From a virus (lineage: Duplodnaviria; Caudoviricetes): DNA of 64,000 bases. Position 1 is the first letter of the stretch. Each line of letters opens with the position of its first letter. Positions 40,864-52,989 of this stretch are shown piece after piece. The stretch lies in IMG/VR virus record IMGVR_UViG_3300025678_000005; one strand, 5' to 3'. The translations under genes and the position numbers were made by a program. Under the pieces are notes generated by a model. The model saw only the letters and a program-made list of their open reading frames with translations. It did not search any database and was not told the origin of the DNA.

Positions 40864-41301
40864 AAAACATTAATTTTATGAACAATAATATTTTAAGAGA
40901 TGCAACTTTAATAGATTCACAAAAAGATGTTGATAATATAGAAGATATTTTAAGTTATCAAAATATAAAACAGAAATCATTTATATTATCAGATTATATA
41001 AACTATTGTAGAAATAAACAAAAAGATGTTGGGGAAATAATTATATGTGCAGAACATATGTGTGTTAAAAAATTTAAGAAAAAAACCAAACAGCAGGCTT
41101 TTTGTTGCACTAAACATAGAAAAATATTTTGGTCAAAATTAAATATGTTGTAAAAATTTTAATAGTTTTGTTTATAAAATTTAATTGTAGAAATTATATA
41201 AAAAATTTTTAATATCTTTGTATTAACAGTACTTGTGGAGCATACCATTAGAACTGCCTTCAAGTCATTTTTAAACATATTATAAGTATATTGTAAGCTC
41301 A

Positions 41302-41363
41302 TGGCGCCAAGCATAGACTGGTAGATGCTATTAGTGATCAAGGTTCATCTCCTTGGGGGTCAA
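41302..41363 (+). ncRNA. tRNA-like RNA lacking an anticodon arm
   Basis: Acceptor TGGCGCC/GGGGTCA (one mismatch), D-arm GCAT..TGG..ATGC, T-arm CAAGG-TTCATCT-CCTTG, only 10 nt between D and T arms. Confidence 0.55.
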
Positions 41364-41551
41364 AATTTTAAGAGTAATAGCAATATATTTAACTATTATA
41401 TGTTTTATTCTAAATAATTAAAGATGTGACTTATAAAACAACGTTGAGCGTATGTGCTGTGCAGCCTTGCACGTACTTTCAACATATAAAACAGTTTATT
41501 GGCTGCATAGCATATACGCATTGTTGTGCGTAGTGCTTTAATAATCAAAAA

Positions 41552-41755
41552 ATGGAATATAAAGGTAAAGTTTATGCAAAAATTAACGGCAAATACATTG
41601 AATGTACAGAAACCGTGCAACAATTAGAAGATAAAATATCCAAACTTGAAAGTGCGTTGGATAAAATTGCTAATGGCACACAACCATACAATGAAAGAGA
41701 GGCTTTTATATTTGTTGATATTGCGAGACAAATAGCGAGCGATGCTATTTCTTAG
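41552..41755 (+). CDS. Cassette-borne hypothetical protein
   Basis: 67 aa ORF filling the cassette. Confidence 0.7.
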   Translation: MEYKGKVYAKINGKYIECTETVQQLEDKISKLESALDKIANGTQPYNEREAFIFVDIARQIASDAIS

Positions 41756-41906
41756 TATTACGCACAACGGCTACTTGTAAGAATAGTAGCCGTGAAAAAC
41801 GCAGGAAAGTTTGATTGAAACACAATAGTTTAATAACCGATGATAGCTCTAAAAAGACCACATAACAGGCTATTATTTTTACAAATTGTTATGTGGCGTT
41901 ATTATT

Positions 41907-42065
41907 ATGGGAACTTATGCAATATGGTATAGACCCGTGTGGGGGCAAATGACAAGGTATGTTGAGTATGTAAAAGCAAACAATGCCAGACAGGCAGAAA
42001 TAAAATTCTATGCTACAAGTGCGGGGGACAATTGCCAAAGCATTATATTAATAGAGAGGTGTTAA
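41907..42065 (+). CDS. Cassette-borne small protein (52 aa, MGTYAIWYRP..LIERC)
   Basis: Read manually; stop abuts TGCCACATAAC. Confidence 0.65.
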   Translation: MGTYAIWYRPVWGQMTRYVEYVKANNARQAEIKFYATSAGDNCQSIILIERC

Positions 42066-42533
42066 TGCCACATAACAATTATATTGGTATTATATATCTT
42101 CCTATGATAACTTAACAGAAGAATTTATTGAAAAATATCAAGATAGAATATATTGGCCATCTATTGCAAAATATCAAGTTTTATCAGAAGACTTTATTAG
42201 AAAATATAAAGACAGATTAGACTGGATTTATATTTCTACTTTTCAGATCTTATCTGAGTCATTTATAAGAGAGTTTAAAGATTATGTAGATTGGATATGT
42301 ATTAGTGAAAATCAAAAGTTTTCTGAAGAATTTATATGTGAATTTAAAGATAAAGTATATTGGAAGGCTATATATAGTTTCGGATTACCTGCAAGCACTA
42401 AAGAAGAAATAGAATAATAAAAATTTAATACTTAAAGTAAAAATAGATTATAAAGATGTAGGAAGAGTGAATTATAATAATGGGGACATAAGATGTTTTA
42501 AATTTACTATTTTAGAATAATTAATAAATTAAA

Positions 42534-44259
42534 ATGAAAAAGATTAGAAAAAACATTTTTGAAACTAATAGTAGTAGTACTCATTCTGTTGTTATAAAAG
42601 AAGGAGAGTTTAAAAATTTTCCAAAAAATATTAATTCTTTAAATATAACTACAGATGATTATGGATGGGAAAAGCATACTTATACTGATTTTACAGATAA
42701 AGCTTCCTATGCTTTAACTTATGCAATTAATTATGGTACTAAAAAAGATTTGAAAATGCTTGATAAAATATTAAAAGAGCAGTTGAATATTAAAGATATA
42801 AAATATGATGGCCTTACATTAAAACAAGCATTGAACTATGTTGGAAAAGATTCTAGAAAATTTGGATATATAGATCATCAGAGTGTAGAAGAAGCAAGTA
42901 AAATATTTAAAGATGAAAATAATTTAAAAAGTTTCTTATTTTCAAAAGATTCATAAAATTCGGCTCAAGGAAACCCCGAAGTCTTTAGCTTCTGGGAGGA
43001 ATTGAGCCACTATTCCTTCTTTTGTTGAATTTAACATAATTATTTCTTTCAAATATTTGAATATCTCAAAACTATTTTGTATCTTTGTGGTATGAAATTG
43101 ACCTTGCAGATTAAGCTGCTTCCAACTGTCGAACAAGCCGTGATGCTGAAAAATACGTTCAGCGTTTTTAACGAGGCTTGCAACACTATCTCGCAGATAG
43201 CGTGGGAACGCCATGCGTTCAAGCAGTTCAGTCTGCACAAGGAAGTGTATTATCCCATCAAGGAAACATATCATCTCTCTTCCCAGCTTGTCGTGCGTGC
43301 AATCAGTAAAGTTGCCGATGCGTACAAGCTCGACAGGAAGAAGCAGAGGCACTTTAGGGAGTTCGGGGCTATCACCTACGACAGCCGTGTGCTTTCCTAC
43401 AGCATGTCCAAGTCCGTCTGTTCCATCTCGCTTGTCGGAAGCCGTGAGAAGATAGCATATACCTGCTACCGTCCGCAGCTCATGCAGTATGCAAAAGGGG
43501 AAGCCGACCTCGTTCTTATCAAAGGAAAGTTCTACCTCTACCAAACGATAGATATTCCCGATGAGCATGAGGAGAACGCAGAGGACTTTATCGGTGTCGA
43601 TATGGGCATTACGGACATTGTATCCGTCTCTGACGGCACTAACATTTCCTCTGATGAGGTCAAGAACATACGAAACAGATACAACAAAGTGAGAGCTTCT
43701 GTCCAGTCTAAAGGCACTCGCAACTGTCATAAGTTGCTGAAACGGTTGAAAGGACGTGAGAGAAGATTCGCCACCATTGTGAACCACCGCATCAGCAAGC
43801 AACTCGTAGCAAAGGCAAAGGAAGAGAACAAGGGTATCGCCATTGAGGACTTGAAGAACATCCGATGGGGCATGAACTCCAAGAAACGCAGCAGGACGTT
43901 CCGCAGGAGGAGTAACTCGTGGAACTTCTACCAGCTCCGTTCCTTTATTGAATACAAGTGCAAGGTGGCTGGCATCAAGATTGTCGCCATTCCGCCTGCC
44001 TACACATCGCAGACCTGTCATGAGTGCGGACACATAGGTATTCGCAACGGCAAGCACTTTCACTGCACGCACTGTGGCAATGTAGCAGACGCAGACGTAA
44101 ACGCTGCTCTGAACATCGCCACATGGGGGTATGTAAACACCCATGAAAGATGGGATTTGTTGTCGTGTCCTATACATGATGATTTTTCTACGTCTAAAGC
44201 CCACAAGTCTTTAGCTTGTGGGTAGTTTACATTTTAAAACTGATAATGATAATATGTAA
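42534..44259 (+). CDS. FETNSSSTHS-motif protein 1, interrupted near its C-terminus by an IS
   Basis: IS removal restores ..FSKDS-YFKTDNDNM*; also carries GYIDHQS. Confidence 0.75.
43056..43087 (+). promoter_or_regulatory. Bacteroidota-type promoter of tnpB
   Basis: TTTG-N20-TATCTTTG. Confidence 0.6.
43092..44225 (+). CDS. tnpB: RNA-guided endonuclease TnpB
   Basis: RuvC GVDMG, IEDL, DADVNAA; zinc finger CHEC..CTHC. Confidence 0.93.
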   Translation: MKLTLQIKLLPTVEQAVMLKNTFSVFNEACNTISQIAWERHAFKQFSLHKEVYYPIKETYHLSSQLVVRAISKVADAYKLDRKKQRHFREFGAITYDSRVLSYSMSKSVCSISLVGSREKIAYTCYRPQLMQYAKGEADLVLIKGKFYLYQTIDIPDEHEENAEDFIGVDMGITDIVSVSDGTNISSDEVKNIRNRYNKVRASVQSKGTRNCHKLLKRLKGRERRFATIVNHRISKQLVAKAKEENKGIAIEDLKNIRWGMNSKKRSRTFRRRSNSWNFYQLRSFIEYKCKVAGIKIVAIPPAYTSQTCHECGHIGIRNGKHFHCTHCGNVADADVNAALNIATWGYVNTHERWDLLSCPIHDDFSTSKAHKSLACG

Positions 44260-44538
44260 ACGAAAAAAATTAGAATTGGATTATTTGAAACTAATAGCAG
44301 CAGTACGCATTCTATTATTATATGTACTGATGAAGAATTAGATAAATGGAAAAAGGGAGAGATTTTACGTGGATATTATGAAGGCTTTGTACCTTATTCT
44401 GAGGATTTGGATAAAGATGAATATTTTACATATGATGAATATATAAAATATAGAGAAGAAGAAGTTTATGAAAATAAATATATTACTAAAAATGGAGAAG
44501 TTTTACATATAATTTGTAAATATGGATATGATGGATAA
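44260..44538 (+). CDS. FETNSSSTHS-motif protein 2 (ACG at the start position)
   Basis: Unlisted 92-codon frame KKIRIGLFETNSSSTHSIII..CKYGYDG. Confidence 0.7.
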   Translation, partial: TKKIRIGLFETNSSSTHSIIICTDEELDKWKKGEILRGYYEGFVPYSEDLDKDEYFTYDEYIKYREEEVYENKYITKNGEVLHIICKYGYDG

Positions 44539-45424
44539 TATATTATATAAATATAATAATGGTAATACTACAGTTACTATTTATGATGATGGCACAAAGA
44601 TAAGGGAGTATGAAGATACTCCCTGTGTCATTTTTCCAGAATCAATAGATTTAAAAATAACTAATTCATGTAATATGAATTGTGCTTTTTGTCATGAATC
44701 ATCTACTAAAGATGGGGCACATGCAAATATTGATAAACTTAAACAAACATTAAATGATCTTCCCGCTGGAATTGAAATAGCTATAGGCGGTGGAAATATA
44801 TTTGAATATCCAGATTTAATAGAATTTTTAACTTGGTGTAAATATAAAGGATTTATTTGTAACATTACAATTAATCAAAAACATTTAAAGAAAAATCTTT
44901 CACAATTAAAATATTTAATTGAAGAAGATCTAGTTAAAGGAATAGGTGTATCTATTAATGGTAATGATTTCAATTCATTAAAAGAATTAAAATCTAAGAG
45001 CAAACATGTTGTTTATCATTTAATTGCAGGGATTCATAAACCAGATATTTTGGATAAATTAAATAAATTAGGTAATTGTAAAGTATTAATACTTGGCTAT
45101 AAACAATTTGGAAGAGGTATAAACTATTATTCTGATGAAGTAATAAAAAATATAAATGAATGGAAAATAAAATTACCAGCATATTTTGGAAAATTTCTAA
45201 TTGCTTTTGATAATTTAGCTTTAAAGCAATTAGATGTAAAATCTATGCTTCCAGAAAAAGTTTGGGATAGTTGTTTTATGGGAGAAGATTTTACTTTTAC
45301 AATGTATGTAGATGGCGTAAAAGAACAATATGCGCCTACAAGTAGTAGTAGCAATAGAACATCTTTTAGTGAAATGACTCTATTAGATTATTTCGTAAAA
45401 CATAAAAATAAAATATCATTTTAA
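44531..45424 (+). CDS. Radical SAM protein
   Basis: CNMNCAFC motif, IAIGGG. Confidence 0.9.
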   Translation: MDNILYKYNNGNTTVTIYDDGTKIREYEDTPCVIFPESIDLKITNSCNMNCAFCHESSTKDGAHANIDKLKQTLNDLPAGIEIAIGGGNIFEYPDLIEFLTWCKYKGFICNITINQKHLKKNLSQLKYLIEEDLVKGIGVSINGNDFNSLKELKSKSKHVVYHLIAGIHKPDILDKLNKLGNCKVLILGYKQFGRGINYYSDEVIKNINEWKIKLPAYFGKFLIAFDNLALKQLDVKSMLPEKVWDSCFMGEDFTFTMYVDGVKEQYAPTSSSSNRTSFSEMTLLDYFVKHKNKISF

Positions 45425-45739: not shown

Positions 45740-46825
45740 ATGAGCAAAATAAATGCAAAAATAGTAGCAGATTCTTTAAGCATTCATGGAGACAGACTGA
45801 CTACACTTCTTATTACTTTTCCAAGATTCATATTAGCAGAGGTGAACACTCATAGAATGTTAAGTAAAAACACATCCTCTTCAAGGGCAATTCCATTTGA
45901 AAAAATGATACAATCTGTAGAGAAAGATCCTTTTATTCCAATTGCTTGGCAAAAAGACCATAAAGGAATGCAGGGAACTGCATATTATGATGAAAATGAA
46001 AGTAATATATGTAAAGAAAAATGGTTAAAAACCAGAGATTTAACAATAGGACAGGCTAAATTTTTACATGATATAGGAATTACAAAACAAATTTGTAATA
46101 GACTTCTTGAGCCTTATATGTGGACTACTATGCTAATAACAGGTAGTGGAGAAGGATGGAAAAATTTTTTTAAATTAAGATGTCCACAGTATTATATAAC
46201 AGACAATCAAAAAGAACCTTATGCTAAAAGCTGGAAAGAATTACTATTATATCATAGTGATGATAAATACACACAGATTATTAAAAATAATCAAGAAAAT
46301 ACATTATTTAAATTAAAACATAATAATGGAAAAGCAGAAATTCATATGATGACTTTAGCAGAGAGTATATATGATTCTATGGTAAATAGTACTCCAAAGC
46401 AATTAAAACCAGGAGAATGGCATATTCCATTTTATGAACAGATGAATGAAACTAAATTATTTATACTTGCTGATCAAATAAATAAAAAAGAGCAGACAGA
46501 TTTATGTTCAGATCCTATTTTAAATAAAGAATTTACAGCAATTAAAGTTTCTATCGCAATGGCTGCGAGGACTTCTTATACTTTGATAGGAGATGAAAAA
46601 GAATTAGATTATGAGAAGTTAAATTCTTTATATGAAAAATTATTGAATCAATATCCTCCACACTCTTCTCCATTTGAACACTGTTGTCAATGTTTAACAG
46701 AAGAAGAATATAATTCTAGTTTTAAAACAGTTGGATTTAAATATGGAAAAGCAATTACTGAAAAAGGATGGGTAAATAATTATCATGGGTTCAAATCTTA
46801 TAGAAGTATTATAGAAAATTATTAG
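45740..46825 (+). CDS. thyX: Flavin-dependent thymidylate synthase
   Basis: THRMLSKNTSSSRA, NRLLEP, LR, ARTSY, HSSPFEH. Confidence 0.8.
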   Translation: MSKINAKIVADSLSIHGDRLTTLLITFPRFILAEVNTHRMLSKNTSSSRAIPFEKMIQSVEKDPFIPIAWQKDHKGMQGTAYYDENESNICKEKWLKTRDLTIGQAKFLHDIGITKQICNRLLEPYMWTTMLITGSGEGWKNFFKLRCPQYYITDNQKEPYAKSWKELLLYHSDDKYTQIIKNNQENTLFKLKHNNGKAEIHMMTLAESIYDSMVNSTPKQLKPGEWHIPFYEQMNETKLFILADQINKKEQTDLCSDPILNKEFTAIKVSIAMAARTSYTLIGDEKELDYEKLNSLYEKLLNQYPPHSSPFEHCCQCLTEEEYNSSFKTVGFKYGKAITEKGWVNNYHGFKSYRSIIENY

Positions 46826-47540: not shown

Positions 47541-48140
47541 ATGTTAGAAGCAGAATATAAATACAATTTAGAAAAATTGTATGATCCAGAATATATTAGT
47601 GATTATTACGCTAATAATAATGTACAAAGTAAAAGTTCTTTATTAAGAGAATATTTAGCAAATTCTAAAAAATCTGATGTTCCAATATCAGAACGAATTA
47701 AAAGTTTTATAACCTTTAAGGAAAAATCTAAACCAATAACAATCAGTAATAAAGTAAAAGAAGCTATGGATTTTTTTATACAGAAAGGACTTACTAAGGA
47801 ACAGGCAGCTGGAATATTGGGTAATCTTCAGGTAGAATCGAATTTAAATACTACAGCATGGGGTGATAATAATACATCTTATGGTATAGCGCAATGAAAT
47901 AAAGACAGGTTGGATGGTTTACATGCATTTTCAAAAATTAGAAATAAACCTACACACGATTTTCAAACACAACTTGAATATATTTGGCACGAATTAAATA
48001 CTACAGAAAGAGCAGCACTTGATGAATTACTTAAGACTAATAATCCAGTAGATGCTGCTCGTGTATTTGCTAAAAAATTTGAAAGAATGAAAGAGTATAA
48101 TCCAAAACGTGAAATATACGCTAAAATGTTTAACGCCTAG
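47541..48140 (+). CDS. Phage tail lysozyme-domain protein (TGA=Trp at 47895)
   Basis: AAGILGNLQVES..YGIAQ[TGA]NKDR..QLEYIWHEL..FER. Confidence 0.85.
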
Positions 48141-51100
48141 CCATAGGATTTGGTACTAATTCCATAAAGTTCAAATTTGATCTAATAAAACTTTCAACTG
48201 ATCCGTTTCCAGAAAAAACATCCTTAACAGAATCTATAGTATCTGATAAAGTACTTATAAATACTGGAGTTGTTTGTATATCTCCTAATAGAGAAAATGG
48301 ATTAAATTCCTTTGTCGATCTCATTAAGATTTTACAAGCCATTCTTTCGTATTGATCCATCTGACTATAGTTTGTTTTTCCAGTAATTAAATCTTTATTT
48401 TTAAATATTAAAATACCAAGTAATATATTAATTAACATTATAATTAAATCATGTAACATTAATTTCGCATTATTAAGTCTATGTGGTTCTATTTCTTTTA
48501 ATGATTTTCCAGTAGCAAGCTCCCTTATTGTTATACCAAAAGAATACATTAATCCTTCAAAAGGATCTCCAACTCATTCTCAATCTGGTGAATAAGCATC
48601 TCCAGGTTTTAATTCTGTTTCTGGTATTTCAAGTCTATATTCTTGTCCATTTTCATCTGTTTCATACTTTACATAATATAGTACTTTTTTACCATTTACC
48701 ATTTTAAACTTCTGTTGCATATGGCCTCTTTTTGTTTTTGTAGGTTTACCAAAATAATATCTTATCTTGGCTGGCCAGAAAGTCATAAATTGACCAAAAA
48801 ATATACCAAGTGGTAAATGCTTTATAAGAGGACTTCTATCATAGTCATAATATCCATACGCCAATTCTGTAAAAGTTTTTATACTTTCTCTTTCAAGATT
48901 CATATATGGTTCTGAAATTAGATCTTCTTCTTTATATGTTTTATCGTTTTTAAAAATAGCTTGTTTATTAAAATAATCAATATAAGTTTTGTATAATGCT
49001 CTTTGTGTATTATATTTTTTATCAGTTGGATGATCTTTCATTCCATATTTTTTTCTCATTTGAAAATAATATGAAAATCTTTCATCCTTTGTTACATCAT
49101 AAACTAAATTACCATCTTTATCTAAAGAATATGCTTGGTAAACACCATCTTTTATTAATTTTGAAAGAAATAATGCTAATCTATTGATATAGTCTGGAGC
49201 TGTATTACTCCAATACATAAAATCACTAATGAAATTTAATCCTCTTCTATCTATCTTTGTTTTATCAACTATCTGATTCATATCTCTATTTGCAATTCTA
49301 AAATAATTATTTAACTCATTAACTAAAGCATAATCCTTTTTTGATAATAATAATTTATAGGCCTGTGTTAAATATCTTCCAGAAAAACTATCATCACCAT
49401 ATACTTTTGATCAGGCATAAGAAGTATTCTTTATAGTACCAACTACTAATTCTTTAATTGCCATGGCTGGTCTTATAGCTAAAACCATAAAACTTACTCC
49501 TTTTTGCAATAGCCTTATATAGCTAAATAAATCTTCATATTCTTTTCCTTTTATTGGAGACACATTATATATTGATACTTTAATCTGTTCCATTGTAGTG
49601 TTTAATAATTTTTCAACTTCTTCAATATGACCAGTTTGATACCCATAAAATCGCAAATTTTGCATTGCTGCATTAATATATGGAAGTACTTCATTAAAAT
49701 ATTTTTCTTTAATAGATTCAAATATATATTTTAATAAAATAGTATCTAAGTTAATTTCTCAATGTCCAACACTATATCTTGTTAATAGATAATCCCTAAA
49801 TTCTTTATCTTCCTGACTTTTGAATCTATTGTAAATTTTCTTTAGGCCATTTATAGCATTCATTGAACCAATATATTGTAATTCTTTTTCTGCTTCTTCA
49901 GGAGTTTCTTGTTTTATATCCAATATATTTAATGCATTTTCTTTAATATTTCCAACCATTTTTCTAAATCCATCTGTAGTCAAAGTTTTTAATTCACTTA
50001 AATTCATTCTTGGAATAAGAGGAATTTTTAATAAATTTTCAATTTCTCCAGAAGCAAGCATTTGTTTTAGTTCTTCTGATTTTTCAAACTTTTCAAATGT
50101 ATCTAATTCTTGATTTGAGCCATCTCTATATAAATAAAACAGATGTATATATTGTTTTAAATATTTTCTTTGTTCTGGAGTTAAAGCTGTTTCTTTTGAT
50201 CATGGATTTTTTAACTTAAATTCTGAATCCAATTTATTACCGTCATGTTCATAAAATGGACTGTAGAATCTATCTGCATCACCAATAAACGTTTTTTCAA
50301 GCCAGGGTCTTCCCATTTCTTTATACATTGCATTTGTTAAATTAATAACTTTATTTTTTTCTTTTAAATAAATACTACTAATTTTATCCTGAGTAAGATT
50401 TCTAACATCGTATATTTGGTTCAAATATTCTGATTGAACAGCATCAGTTGTTGCAAGTTTCATTCCCTGGAACATTCCAACTGTAGGAATTTTTATATTT
50501 GTATCTTTTACTTCTCCAAATAATCAGCTTTTTAACATGTGTGTAAAATCACCTTTTGTCATACCATACTCATTTACGCCAGTTTCAAACTCTCCATTGA
50601 TTCCTATAAAATGAGATATTCCTCCACTTACTAATGCATATAGATAAACAATAGGATCGCTAAAATCAGTAATTTTAGTTGGATCTATTTTATTCAAATG
50701 GCCATATGTTTCTAAAAGTTTATCACTTAGTTGAGTTAATAATTTTATTTTTTCATTATTTGTTGATGGATTGTCAAATTGCTCCATACTAAAATAAGCA
50801 TTTAATGCATCATTATTTATAGTTCTTAATGCATCTAATATTTCTTGATATAATATTTCCATATAATCTGCTACTTTAATTTTTTTATTAGCAAAATTAT
50901 TTTCTATATTTATATCATCCTTTATTTCTTTTAGAAGCAAATCGAAATTATAAAAGGCATTTTCCAAATTATTAGATCAGTCTGGTGTTCCAGAGGAAAT
51001 ATCCAATACTTTTATATTTCCAAGTTTATATCCATATAACACATCTGGCATAGCATTTAATACAGTCAAAGTTTTTAAAATTTCTATATGTGAACTTGTA

Positions 51101-52989
51101 GCGTTTCATATTTTTGGATCTCTATTTAAATCTGAATCTCTATAAAATTTACCAAGTACTTTAGTTCCAAGACCAAGATTGTTAATTTGTCTTAAATTAT
51201 TAATTGTTAATGTTACAACTTCTACCTGTAATGTCTTATTATTGCGAAAAACAAGTGTGCCATTTGCTAATAAAGCAGGTCTATTTGTAATTAATTCTCA
51301 ATCTCCACTTAAGTATTTTTGAAAAGTAGTATTTAGACCATCATAAATAAGTCCTTTTATATTTAATTTTCCAGTTTTTTTTCCTTTATTTATTTCTTTA
51401 ATTATATCCTGTACAGCTGTATCTTTTTTAGCATTTAATAATTCTACGTATTCGGCAACTCTTTTTCTAAATCTTTCTACGCCTTCTTCGGTGTTGGGCT
51501 CTTCAATATATTCACCAGTTAATCTATTCAAAAGTTTAATTGTTTGTCTTCCTTCGGCCCTATGTTTAGCTTTTGTTATTAAAAATTCTATATCTTCTAT
51601 TTTACGTTTTGTCCTGAAATTATAAGTAGGAAACATTGCAGATAATGTTTTTTGTATATTACTTATTATTACAGTACTTTCTTCTGGGTTATCTTTAACT
51701 TTTACAGGAATTAATTTTCTAAGCGTTTGTGTGACAATTCCATTTTCATCAAGGCCAGATGGTTTATATGCATAAGAAGAACTTCTTTCATTTACCTCTC
51801 CAATATAAAATTTATCTGCCATTATCAATCCATCTCTATTTACTGGAAAAATTGCTGGTAATATGTATAATGATATAAGTTGTGGATTAATTTCTGGTGG
51901 CAGCAAATCCTCTAGTAATCTCCTTGATATACCAAGTTTATAGTCAGTTCTTAGAATTTTTGCTGAGTCTCAATCTGTAATATTATTTCTAGAAACTCTT
52001 ACATCATAAATGCTGGGAATTCCATCACTGTTTATAGATAAGTAAGAGATTGGAGATGATATTCCTGTTGCATTTTCTATAGGTAATTGTCTATTTAACC
52101 AAACATCTGCTTCAAATTTTTCAGTAGAATTTAAAACAGTTTGTTTATATCATTTTTGTATCTGTTCTTTTATATTTTGTGATATATTTACTTTTTCTTT
52201 TTCTGTAAAACTAAAGTCATGTTTTATTAATTTATTATAATTCTCTACAGTTTTTATAATTTTTTCTATAGAATTATCAATAGAAAATTTAGGATTCTTT
52301 TTTATATAATTTTGTAAAATATCATTAACTATTATTTGTAAAGACACCATTATATTTGAAGTCTTTAATTCCAGGTCTACTTCTTCTGTTGCCCTTCTAA
52401 GCGCTTCTTCTGGATCAGACTCATTTAAATCCTTATATTTTGTATTAAGTAAATCATTTATAGCTTCTTTCTTATAGTTTTCATCATTAAAAACAGGAGC
52501 AAGTAATTTTGGATTTTCACCATCTATTATATGTTCCATTTTTAAAAATTGACTATCAATAATAAAGTTCTTACTATATGGTACATTATTTTTCTTAATT
52601 TCTTCTCATACTCTATCCTGTATAGAATTTTCTTTAATATCAAATTTCAAGACAGTATGTTTTTTATTTTCCAATCATTCTTTAAACTGTTTAATATCTT
52701 CTTCTGATCCCAATATATATTTATTAAATGGTGTATATGAAATACCTTCATTAATATCATGTTCTTTTGGATCTAAATTAGGAAATTTGCTGTCTATAAA
52801 ATCAATATATTGTTCAAGTGTTCCAATACCTTTTATTTTTTCATCGTATATAGGTAATATATAATCATTTATAACATTTCCAGGTATTGAATGTATATAA
52901 TGAGCCTTTATAAAATCAGAAAGTTCTTTATCAGATTCATAAGTAAATTCATTATTTCCATCTTTTAAAAAATATTTGCATTTATCCAT
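48130..52989 (-). CDS. Giant virion/cargo protein, 1619 aa with TGA=Trp
   Basis: Nine listed ORF fragments share one frame and are broken by TGA; ends in TAA. Confidence 0.82.

Follow-up and report, generated by a model that had tools for sequence, protein, structure and literature searches.

The window analysed here is a 64,000-nucleotide stretch of phage DNA (Duplodnaviria; Caudoviricetes) that forms part of the 138.5-kb IMG/VR virus record IMGVR_UViG_3300025678_000005, the GC content of which is approximately 22%. Between positions 42,534 and 45,424 the window carries two genes that share an N-terminal peptide, termed the box in the following, and a gene for a radical S-adenosylmethionine (SAM) enzyme, termed R. 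A preliminary description of this DNA regarded the three as one module, in which two adjacent and otherwise dissimilar box genes are coupled to R. We found that genes of this kind constitute a widespread, phage-specific gene set, in which one dedicated R is accompanied by one to ten otherwise unrelated box proteins. When the region was searched at the DNA level against 50,697 phage records, no match was obtained. The locus carries the following features:

42534..42956, + strand: gene 1, an A-type ETNSSS-box protein; an open reading frame (ORF) of 140 aa starting with ATG, its 3' end truncated by an insertion sequence (IS)
42956..44231, + strand: IS200/IS605-family element with tnpB only; 1,276 bp, boundaries ±1 nt
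43092..44225, + strand: tnpB; 377 aa from the ATG at 43092, appears intact, zinc-ribbon CxxC...CxxC
44232..44259, + strand: severed 3' end of gene 1; begins with the third base of TAT and continues with F K T D N D N M and the stop codon TAA
44260..44538, + strand: gene 2, a short B-type ETNSSS-box frame; 92 codons, full length compared with short B-type relatives
44522..45424, + strand: radical SAM enzyme R; 300 aa, intact, with CxxxCxxC at 50-57 and AIGGGN

As translated, gene 1 starts with MKKIRKNIFETNSSSTHSVVI (= MKKIRKNIFETNSSSTHS), while the gene 2 frame reads TKKIRIGLFETNSSSTHSIII / TKKIRIGLFETNSSSTHS... and stays open across its 92 codons. Common to both is the box KKIRxxxFETNSSSTHS, and a search of the own phage genome with gene 1 retrieved gene 2 at an E value of 2e-4 over 24 residues. 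The shared peptide reported earlier was thus confirmed and is no chance likeness, and confirmed too was the dissimilarity of the two products beyond it: in a profile-profile comparison the A and B families matched with a probability of 99% (E 1.4e-18), and the alignment was confined to the first 38 columns or so. The overlap of gene 2 with the start of the radical SAM gene was also found, since the gene 2 stop (44536-44538) lies 17 nt inside the R frame, whose CxxxCxxC motif is formed by C50, C54 and C57. However, the two box genes are not adjacent here, as had been supposed; the 1,276-bp TnpB element lies between them.

Gene 1 has been shortened by this element. Among 253 homologs, P0002 (98% identity) and P0003 come nearest to it; both are 149 aa long and end in ...YFKTDNDNM. 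A near-identical relative of the phage without the GC-rich stretch (IMGVR_UViG_3300038674_000325, L003 in the following) has an uninterrupted gene 1 of 149 aa, in which ...GATTCATA is followed directly by TTTTAAAACTGATAATGATAATATGTAA, the insertion point in the window lying between the two. Comparison with this empty site revealed that gene 1 has lost its final 9 codons, YFKTDNDNM, and that its present stop codon TAA (42954-42956) consists of the TA of the original TAT codon and the first A of the IS. The orphaned tail at 44232-44259 is identical to L003 at 28 of 28 bases, and in L003 it is contiguous with gene 1. The lost residues D145, N146, D147 and N148 are kept in at least 90% of 112 homologs and are located on the last strand of the predicted fold.

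Gene 2 is in the same frame as the orphaned tail of gene 1 and lies immediately 3' of its TAA. It has an ACG at the exact position of the initiator ATG in the related locus L004 and in most relatives. As noticed in the preliminary description, gene 2 is missing from the standard ORF list, because it has no ATG, GTG or TTG start. Nevertheless, the frame aligns end to end with 13 B-type relatives, through the box, a C.EE...W..GE motif and a C-terminal YGYDG. The B gene of L004 encodes 90 aa, its ATG is located 2 bases past the stop of the preceding A gene, and it overlaps R by the same 17 nt. The gene 2 copy in L003 has the same ACG and, in addition, a 4-nt deletion within the box that shifts the frame. 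Since the ACG is present in both phages and L003 carries the box deletion, the sequences suggest that gene 2 in this lineage is probably decaying, or at best non-canonically initiated; an ATT at 44269 may be an alternative start. Expression of gene 2 by read-through of the TAA after the gene 1 tail, or by a slip in an A7 run joining the ORF 44216-44341, was considered and dropped in favour of a simple ATG-to-ACG change, because the ACG aligns codon for codon with the L004 ATG and with position -9 of the family. The identity of gene 2 to L003 is 95.0%, compared with 98.6-99.7% in the flanks; since gene 2 borders a recombinant tract, this divergence is no evidence for relaxed selection. In-frame TGA codons are absent from the module genes. 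The module copy in this phage looks crippled, with the A gene cut by an IS, the B gene without a canonical start and R intact but mosaic. The proposed three-gene module stood insofar as the order A-B-R is common elsewhere, but it did not hold for this copy, in which gene 1 is truncated and gene 2 lacks a start codon.

The occurrence of box genes and R was monitored in both directions. A profile of 112 A-type homologs detected at least 394 viral contigs, and among the 81 loci fetched, 79 had R on the same strand within 6 kb, mostly abutting or overlapping the box gene. The R profile detected at least 505 viral contigs, and 76 of the 79 newly fetched loci carried box ORFs, one to six each. A box search of 185,579 prokaryote genomes, one per species, gave 157 motif stretches, mostly on metagenome-bin contigs, and R was present within 5 kb of the box in 56 of 76 such bin loci. 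Where box-only bin loci could be followed up (four of four), R was found elsewhere in the same bin, once just past the locus edge; likewise, the 275-kb genome to which an R-only viral locus (L116) belongs contains two box genes away from this locus. All other exceptions stem from records with a completeness of just 4-38%. The most common layout is A followed by R (40 of 81 loci), the A-B-R order being a common variant, and one phage contig carries ten box genes in a row beside a single R. Furthermore, the two partners are naturally fused in both orders, with the box domain preceding R in P0130, P0158, P0169 and P0178, and R preceding the box domain in L037/L038 and P0235; a word-based search for further fusions returned the query alone. 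No other gene family is conserved around the box-R pair. Therefore, the linkage is real and near-obligate in both directions, and the tie between the N-terminal motif and this radical SAM family, for which the preliminary description had recommended a gene-neighbourhood analysis, was borne out by it, the testable exceptions having their partner elsewhere in the genome. In L116, R stands beside a phage S-adenosylmethionine synthetase (MetK-like) and a 277-aa protein without a box (L116:2993-5921).

The box-R system is essentially phage-only and almost absent from cellular genomes. The R family comprised 658 representative clusters at E ≤ 1e-30 and is viral by Atlas taxonomy, and among the 50,697 phage records R was found only in the Microcystis phage Ma-LMM01 group and in the Prevotella Lak megaphages. 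In the cultured Microcystis phage Ma-LMM01, gp128 is R, annotated as Fe-S oxidoreductase, and gp130 is a box protein of 166 aa, annotated as hypothetical. A literature search found no paper that describes the system or contains 'ETNSSS', and gp128 and gp130 are unmentioned in the Ma-LMM01 transcriptome paper (PMC5780444). Gene 1 matched PHROG 28997 (function label: unknown) at 2.8e-6 and R matched PHROG 16999 ('Fe-S oxidoreductase') at 2.9e-61; these entries and the Ma-LMM01 labels cover the same proteins, but they are database labels without function, pairing or motif.

With E-T-N-S-S as the search anchor, 370 unique box-bearing ORFs were collected, and a looser box pattern recovered no further variants. 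Their consensus is (M)K-x-I-R-x-x-V-F-E-T-N-S-S-S-x-H-S, with a 13-residue core R-x-x-x-F-E-T-N-S-S-S-x-H, in which R(-5), F(-1), S(+5) and H(+7) are 99-100% invariant. The bodies behind the box fell into at least 45 BLAST clusters, and the C-terminal ends differ as well (...TDNDNH, ...YYKGN, ...FGYYGxDY, ...FGRD and ...CPYGMER). No invariant polar residue was found outside the box in the B type, and the B type and several other body types have no conserved acidic or His residue outside it. A-type proteins have two further near-invariant motifs, Y112 I113 D114 H115 Q116 S117 (GYIDHQS) and D145 N146 D147 N148. In the A-type model (predicted local distance difference test, pLDDT, 89.6; predicted template modelling score, pTM, 0.84), the box is placed next to GYIDHQS and the C-terminal DNDN(H), the motif strands neighbouring the strand that follows the box; box residues 10-12 have pLDDT values below 50. 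The A type resembled no protein of known function in the collections searched. None of the 112 members gave a Pfam match above the cutoff, and NCBIfam gave no match; against the Protein Data Bank (PDB), the best Foldseek E value for the fold was 0.77, the best Z by VIA across 48,161 chains was 2.6, and the best E value of a profile search was 0.09. BFVD returned only uncharacterised members of the family, and the ESM Atlas only viral hypothetical clusters.

Several known motifs and systems were compared with the box. The DxDxT loop of HAD phosphatases, the DTN loop of PIN domains and the HxS of 2H phosphoesterases gained no support as likenesses, nor did the Ser-Ser cleavage of pyruvoyl enzymes or an intein-like Asn-Ser cleavage. 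The His-Xaa-Ser (Hxs) system was also rejected; the HxsC models, whose cutoffs are 268 and 500 bits, gave 22.5 and 17 bits, respectively.

R matched the Pfam radical SAM family PF04055 with 32.0 bits (cutoff 29.5). The three cysteines of its cluster motif, C50-x3-C54-x2-C57, are invariant in 146 members, and no conserved cysteine was found outside the motif in alignments of 65 and 146 members; since only the three cluster cysteines are conserved, R appears to have no auxiliary cluster. An N-terminal three-stranded sheet (Y.NGN...DGTK.R) with the invariant residues Y11, N13, G14, N15, G24 and T25 precedes the barrel. The AlphaFold2 model of R (pLDDT 95.8, pTM 0.92) has a partial TIM-barrel core and is similar to more than 25 solved radical SAM enzymes with Z scores from 20.4 to 10. 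The nearest solved structures were SkfB (Z 20.4 over 267 residues, root-mean-square deviation 3.4) and SuiB (Z 17.8), and both alignments begin within the N-terminal sheet of R. They were followed by viperin (17.1), BlsE, PqqE and EpeE (16.4), the anaerobic sulfatase-maturating enzyme (anSME) anSMEcpe (15.2, 244 residues), and the pyruvate formate-lyase activating enzyme PFL-AE (11.9). The Foldseek list was headed by SuiB, SkfB and CteB, with E values of approximately 1e-7 for SkfB and SuiB. At the sequence level R belongs to none of the named NCBIfam models, all 24 matches being far below cutoff; the best was W_rSAM_matur (32 bits against 380), the maturase models gave at most 32 bits against cutoffs of 131-850, and viperin (NF038283) gave 30.3 bits against 180. 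The structural similarity of R to viperin is real, but viperin is not the top match.

The R gene of this phage is a mosaic. Its bases 44522-45050 form a recombinant tract that is 66-80% identical to L003 (L003:1370-1900), compared with 98-99.7% on either side, and the cluster-motif region differs across the mosaic (CNMNCAFC and CDAGCKYC in the window/L003 comparison). In other R genes, Hint-type inteins (L033:3652-6017, L041:3700-6017 and L080:8611-10710) split the protein within CxxxCxxC, before its last cysteine, and within AIGGGN; the L080 intein is large and contains an endonuclease. Inteins favour sites under strong constraint.

The function that we infer as the best reading is that of a maturase with client proteins, and the locus may tentatively be regarded as a copy, in part disabled, of a system of two components that is specific to phages and in which R would mature the box proteins. 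The box would be both a linear recognition site and the site of modification. R would bind it, possibly through its own invariant N-terminal sheet, and the 5'-deoxyadenosyl radical of R would abstract a hydrogen from a box residue (a Ser, Thr or Asn), and thereby mature each client. Possible changes are an oxidised, epimerised, cross-linked or cleaved Ser, Thr or Asn. The modified box, which lies by GYIDHQS and DNDN(H) in the A-type model, would then form the working site of the client. One maturase would thus serve several clients, with a logic like that of anSME and the sulfatases, or of the activases and glycyl-radical enzymes. The preliminary description had offered a substrate, docking or autoprocessing site as possible roles of the motif; the data tend to favour a linear site for recognition or modification. 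We favour this reading because one contiguous peptide is the sole universally conserved feature of the partners, because one R serves many dissimilar partners, because the A-type fold is well predicted except for the box, which is poorly ordered, and because the nearest structural relatives of R act on peptides. The inteins within CxxxCxxC and AIGGGN were also counted in its favour. A stronger form of this proposal is that an R without auxiliary cluster carries out a hitherto unrecognised phage post-translational modification on the box of up to ten clients per phage, and thereby creates a new protein-derived catalytic group on a fold absent from the PDB; we consider this form less likely than not.

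Several observations weigh against a maturase with clients. R has no auxiliary-cluster cysteines, and most SPASM/twitch peptide or protein maturases, including anSME, need auxiliary clusters. Viperin (Z 17.1) and BlsE (Z 16.4), whose substrates are of the nucleotide type, are nearly as close to R as SuiB is. The A-type motifs GYIDHQS and DNDN resemble an active site of their own, and a low pLDDT at an N-terminus is common and thus weak evidence. Moreover, two enzymes of one pathway, or two subunits of one enzyme, would be just as likely to have adjacent or fused genes. If R and the box proteins were independent enzymes of a pathway, the box would be the catalytic loop, or a metal or phosphate loop, of a small hydrolase- or transferase-like superfamily, and R would make or consume their substrate, for example a modified nucleotide, a DNA base or a metabolite. 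The box would then be comparable to the N-terminal DxDxT loop of HAD phosphatases, and the extra near-invariant Asp, Asn, His, Gln and Ser motifs of the A type, which the model places on strands neighbouring the strand after the box, would suit such a site. A context of nucleotide and DNA metabolism points in the same direction (ThyX downstream here, primase and resolvase near the pair in Ma-LMM01, SAM synthetase in L116), as do viperin and BlsE as close structural neighbours of R. Nevertheless, the B type and several other bodies are devoid of conserved acidic or His residues outside the box, and a catalytic site within one contiguous loop would be unusual. For the A type, the fold and profile searches described above detected no hydrolase or transferase, and up to ten paralogs per R are awkward for a linear pathway. 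We therefore regard independent pathway enzymes as rather unlikely.

Much of the same evidence applies to a docking handle. The box would then stay chemically unaltered and plug alternative partner subunits into R, perhaps lending active-site residues, and the variable bodies would be specificity or adaptor modules that steer R to host or phage proteins, nucleic acids or metabolites. The linkage, the fusions and the many partners per R apply here equally; the invariant residues of the R sheet (Y11, N13, G14, N15, G24 and T25) pair naturally with an invariant partner peptide, and many body types fit an adaptor set. However, docking rarely needs nine consecutive near-invariant polar residues from phages of cyanobacteria to those of Prevotella hosts, and the gene context gives no hint of a target, the module having no other conserved gene family in its surroundings; we thus consider docking alone quite unlikely. 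The internal proteins of phage T4 are otherwise dissimilar and share a capsid-targeting sequence that is cleaved after Glu. Neighbouring dissimilar genes with the same N-terminal peptide, and a hydrophobic-x-Glu stretch (V-F-E) in it, resemble this arrangement, so that the box might be a virion-targeting or prohead-protease signal, that is, a capsid-targeting or cleavage sequence. Such a signal would leave unexplained why the box genes are linked almost obligately, and in some cases fused, to a radical SAM gene, why boxes lie internally in the fusions with R first, and why the box is invariant in unrelated phage lineages whose capsid machinery differs; it is highly improbable.

The proposed maturase and its clients were compared with known radical SAM systems. 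In anSME and the sulfatases, one radical SAM enzyme also acts on several paralogous clients through a short Ser/Cys-containing signature near the N-terminus, often encoded by neighbouring genes, and the structure of anSMEcpe is clearly similar to that of R (Z 15.2, 244 residues). However, R is without the auxiliary-cluster cysteines of the SPASM domain, and the signature is R-x3-F-E-T-N-S-S-S-x-H instead of C/S-x-P-x-R. Furthermore, the box clients have 90-260 aa and no sulfatase or alkaline-phosphatase fold, and the system is essentially confined to phages. SkfB and SuiB, and also CteB, PqqE and EpeE, are maturases of ribosomally synthesised and post-translationally modified peptides (RiPPs). 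They include the closest structures to R, and here too the putative substrate is a short invariant peptide encoded beside the enzyme. Compared with them, R lacks auxiliary Fe-S cysteines and has no full RiPP recognition element domain, just approximately 30 residues of sheet. In addition, the putative precursors of the box-R system do not have a leader-core layout: they are folded proteins that start with the conserved peptide and continue into large bodies of variable sequence. The glycyl-radical activases (PFL-AE and NrdG) are likewise small radical SAM enzymes with the cluster motif only and a folded partner encoded alongside, phage pairs occur, and PFL-AE is a structural neighbour of R (Z 11.9). 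Nevertheless, the box partners have no Gly-containing radical motif, are of approximately 90-260 aa and differ in fold, and R itself resembles the SPASM/viperin group more than the activases.

New chemistry has come to light repeatedly in protein-acting radical SAM enzymes, with glycyl radicals, formylglycine and RiPP cross-links as examples. The present system is a radical SAM enzyme with dedicated protein partners, and the chance that it holds a new protein modification is substantial. The box-R pair is common in large uncultivated phages, its range extends from the cultured cyanophage Ma-LMM01 to the Lak megaphages, and almost nothing else in these genomes matches the conservation of the 13-residue box peptide; for the box proteins, no relative of known fold or function was detected. 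Should the box prove to be a site of modification, the system would represent a new kind of protein maturation, the recognition tag of which is short, defined and portable; should it be a docking handle, the system would represent the modular retargeting of one radical enzyme. Since a cultured phage carries the pair, modification and docking are both directly testable. In annotation, several hundred phage proteins labelled 'hypothetical', together with their enzyme, can be recognised simply by the box.

The insertion between the box genes is an IS200/IS605-type element with only tnpB, as judged from the clean insertion without duplication, the hairpins at both ends and the TnpB ORF. When both junctions were aligned to the empty site of L003, the element was found to have inserted after 5'-TTCATA without target duplication. 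Subterminal hairpins are located at 42962-43008 and 44199-44223 (z -2.8 and -4.3, respectively), and the element is single-copy in the 138.5-kb record. The program-made ORF list places the tnpB start at the TTG at 43077. The product, a TnpB (OrfB) with RuvC-like and zinc-ribbon domains, contains the Pfam domains Cas12f1-like_TNB (1.5e-25) and OrfB_IS605 (8e-7), and matches PHROG 506 ('transposase', 4.3e-51). No TnpA (Y1 transposase) was found in the 1,276 bp, tnpB being the only ORF, and thus the element is non-autonomous. In its TnpB domains, its hairpins at both ends and the lack of target duplication it is like the TnpB-only (IS1341-like) IS200/IS605 elements; compared with those, this one lies inside a phage module gene and is far GC-richer than its carrier. 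The GC content of the element is 46-51%, whereas that of the flanks is approximately 20-27%. An assembly chimera as the origin of the GC-rich insert was ruled out by the exact junctions relative to an independent empty site and by the IS605-type ends. Since an element of approximately 50% GC lies in a phage of approximately 22% GC, its acquisition was probably recent and its source much richer in GC. In TnpB homing, a guide RNA targets the uninterrupted allele; by analogy, the guide RNA of this element would target the L003 allele, in which TTCATA is followed at the insertion point by TTTTAAAACTG...

Just upstream of gene 1, the stretch 41200-42250 of the window has a raised GC content of 30-36% and contains only short ORFs. 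Rfam and tRNA scans of 40.5-46 kb gave only a sub-threshold chance match, and none in 41200-42250.

Sequences further downstream suggest that this phage uses TGA as a sense codon. In the region 47541-48140 (+ strand), an in-frame TGA at 47895-47897 (GIAQ-TGA-N) lies within a Phage_lysozyme2 domain (E 2.7e-34), and an ORF of 1,619 aa at 48130-52989 (- strand) opens only if 13 TGAs are read through. When TGA was read as sense, the summed length of long ORFs increased from 12,573 to 15,682 aa. This pattern suggests that the host uses code 4 or code 25, or that stop codons are recoded in late genes.

Downstream of the module, thyX is intact in the window (45740-46825). In L003, thyX (L003:2588-4585) is split by approximately 930 bp with a GIY-YIG-type endonuclease-like ORF (L003:2836-3525), and this interruption is probably a mobile intron or a free-standing homing endonuclease.

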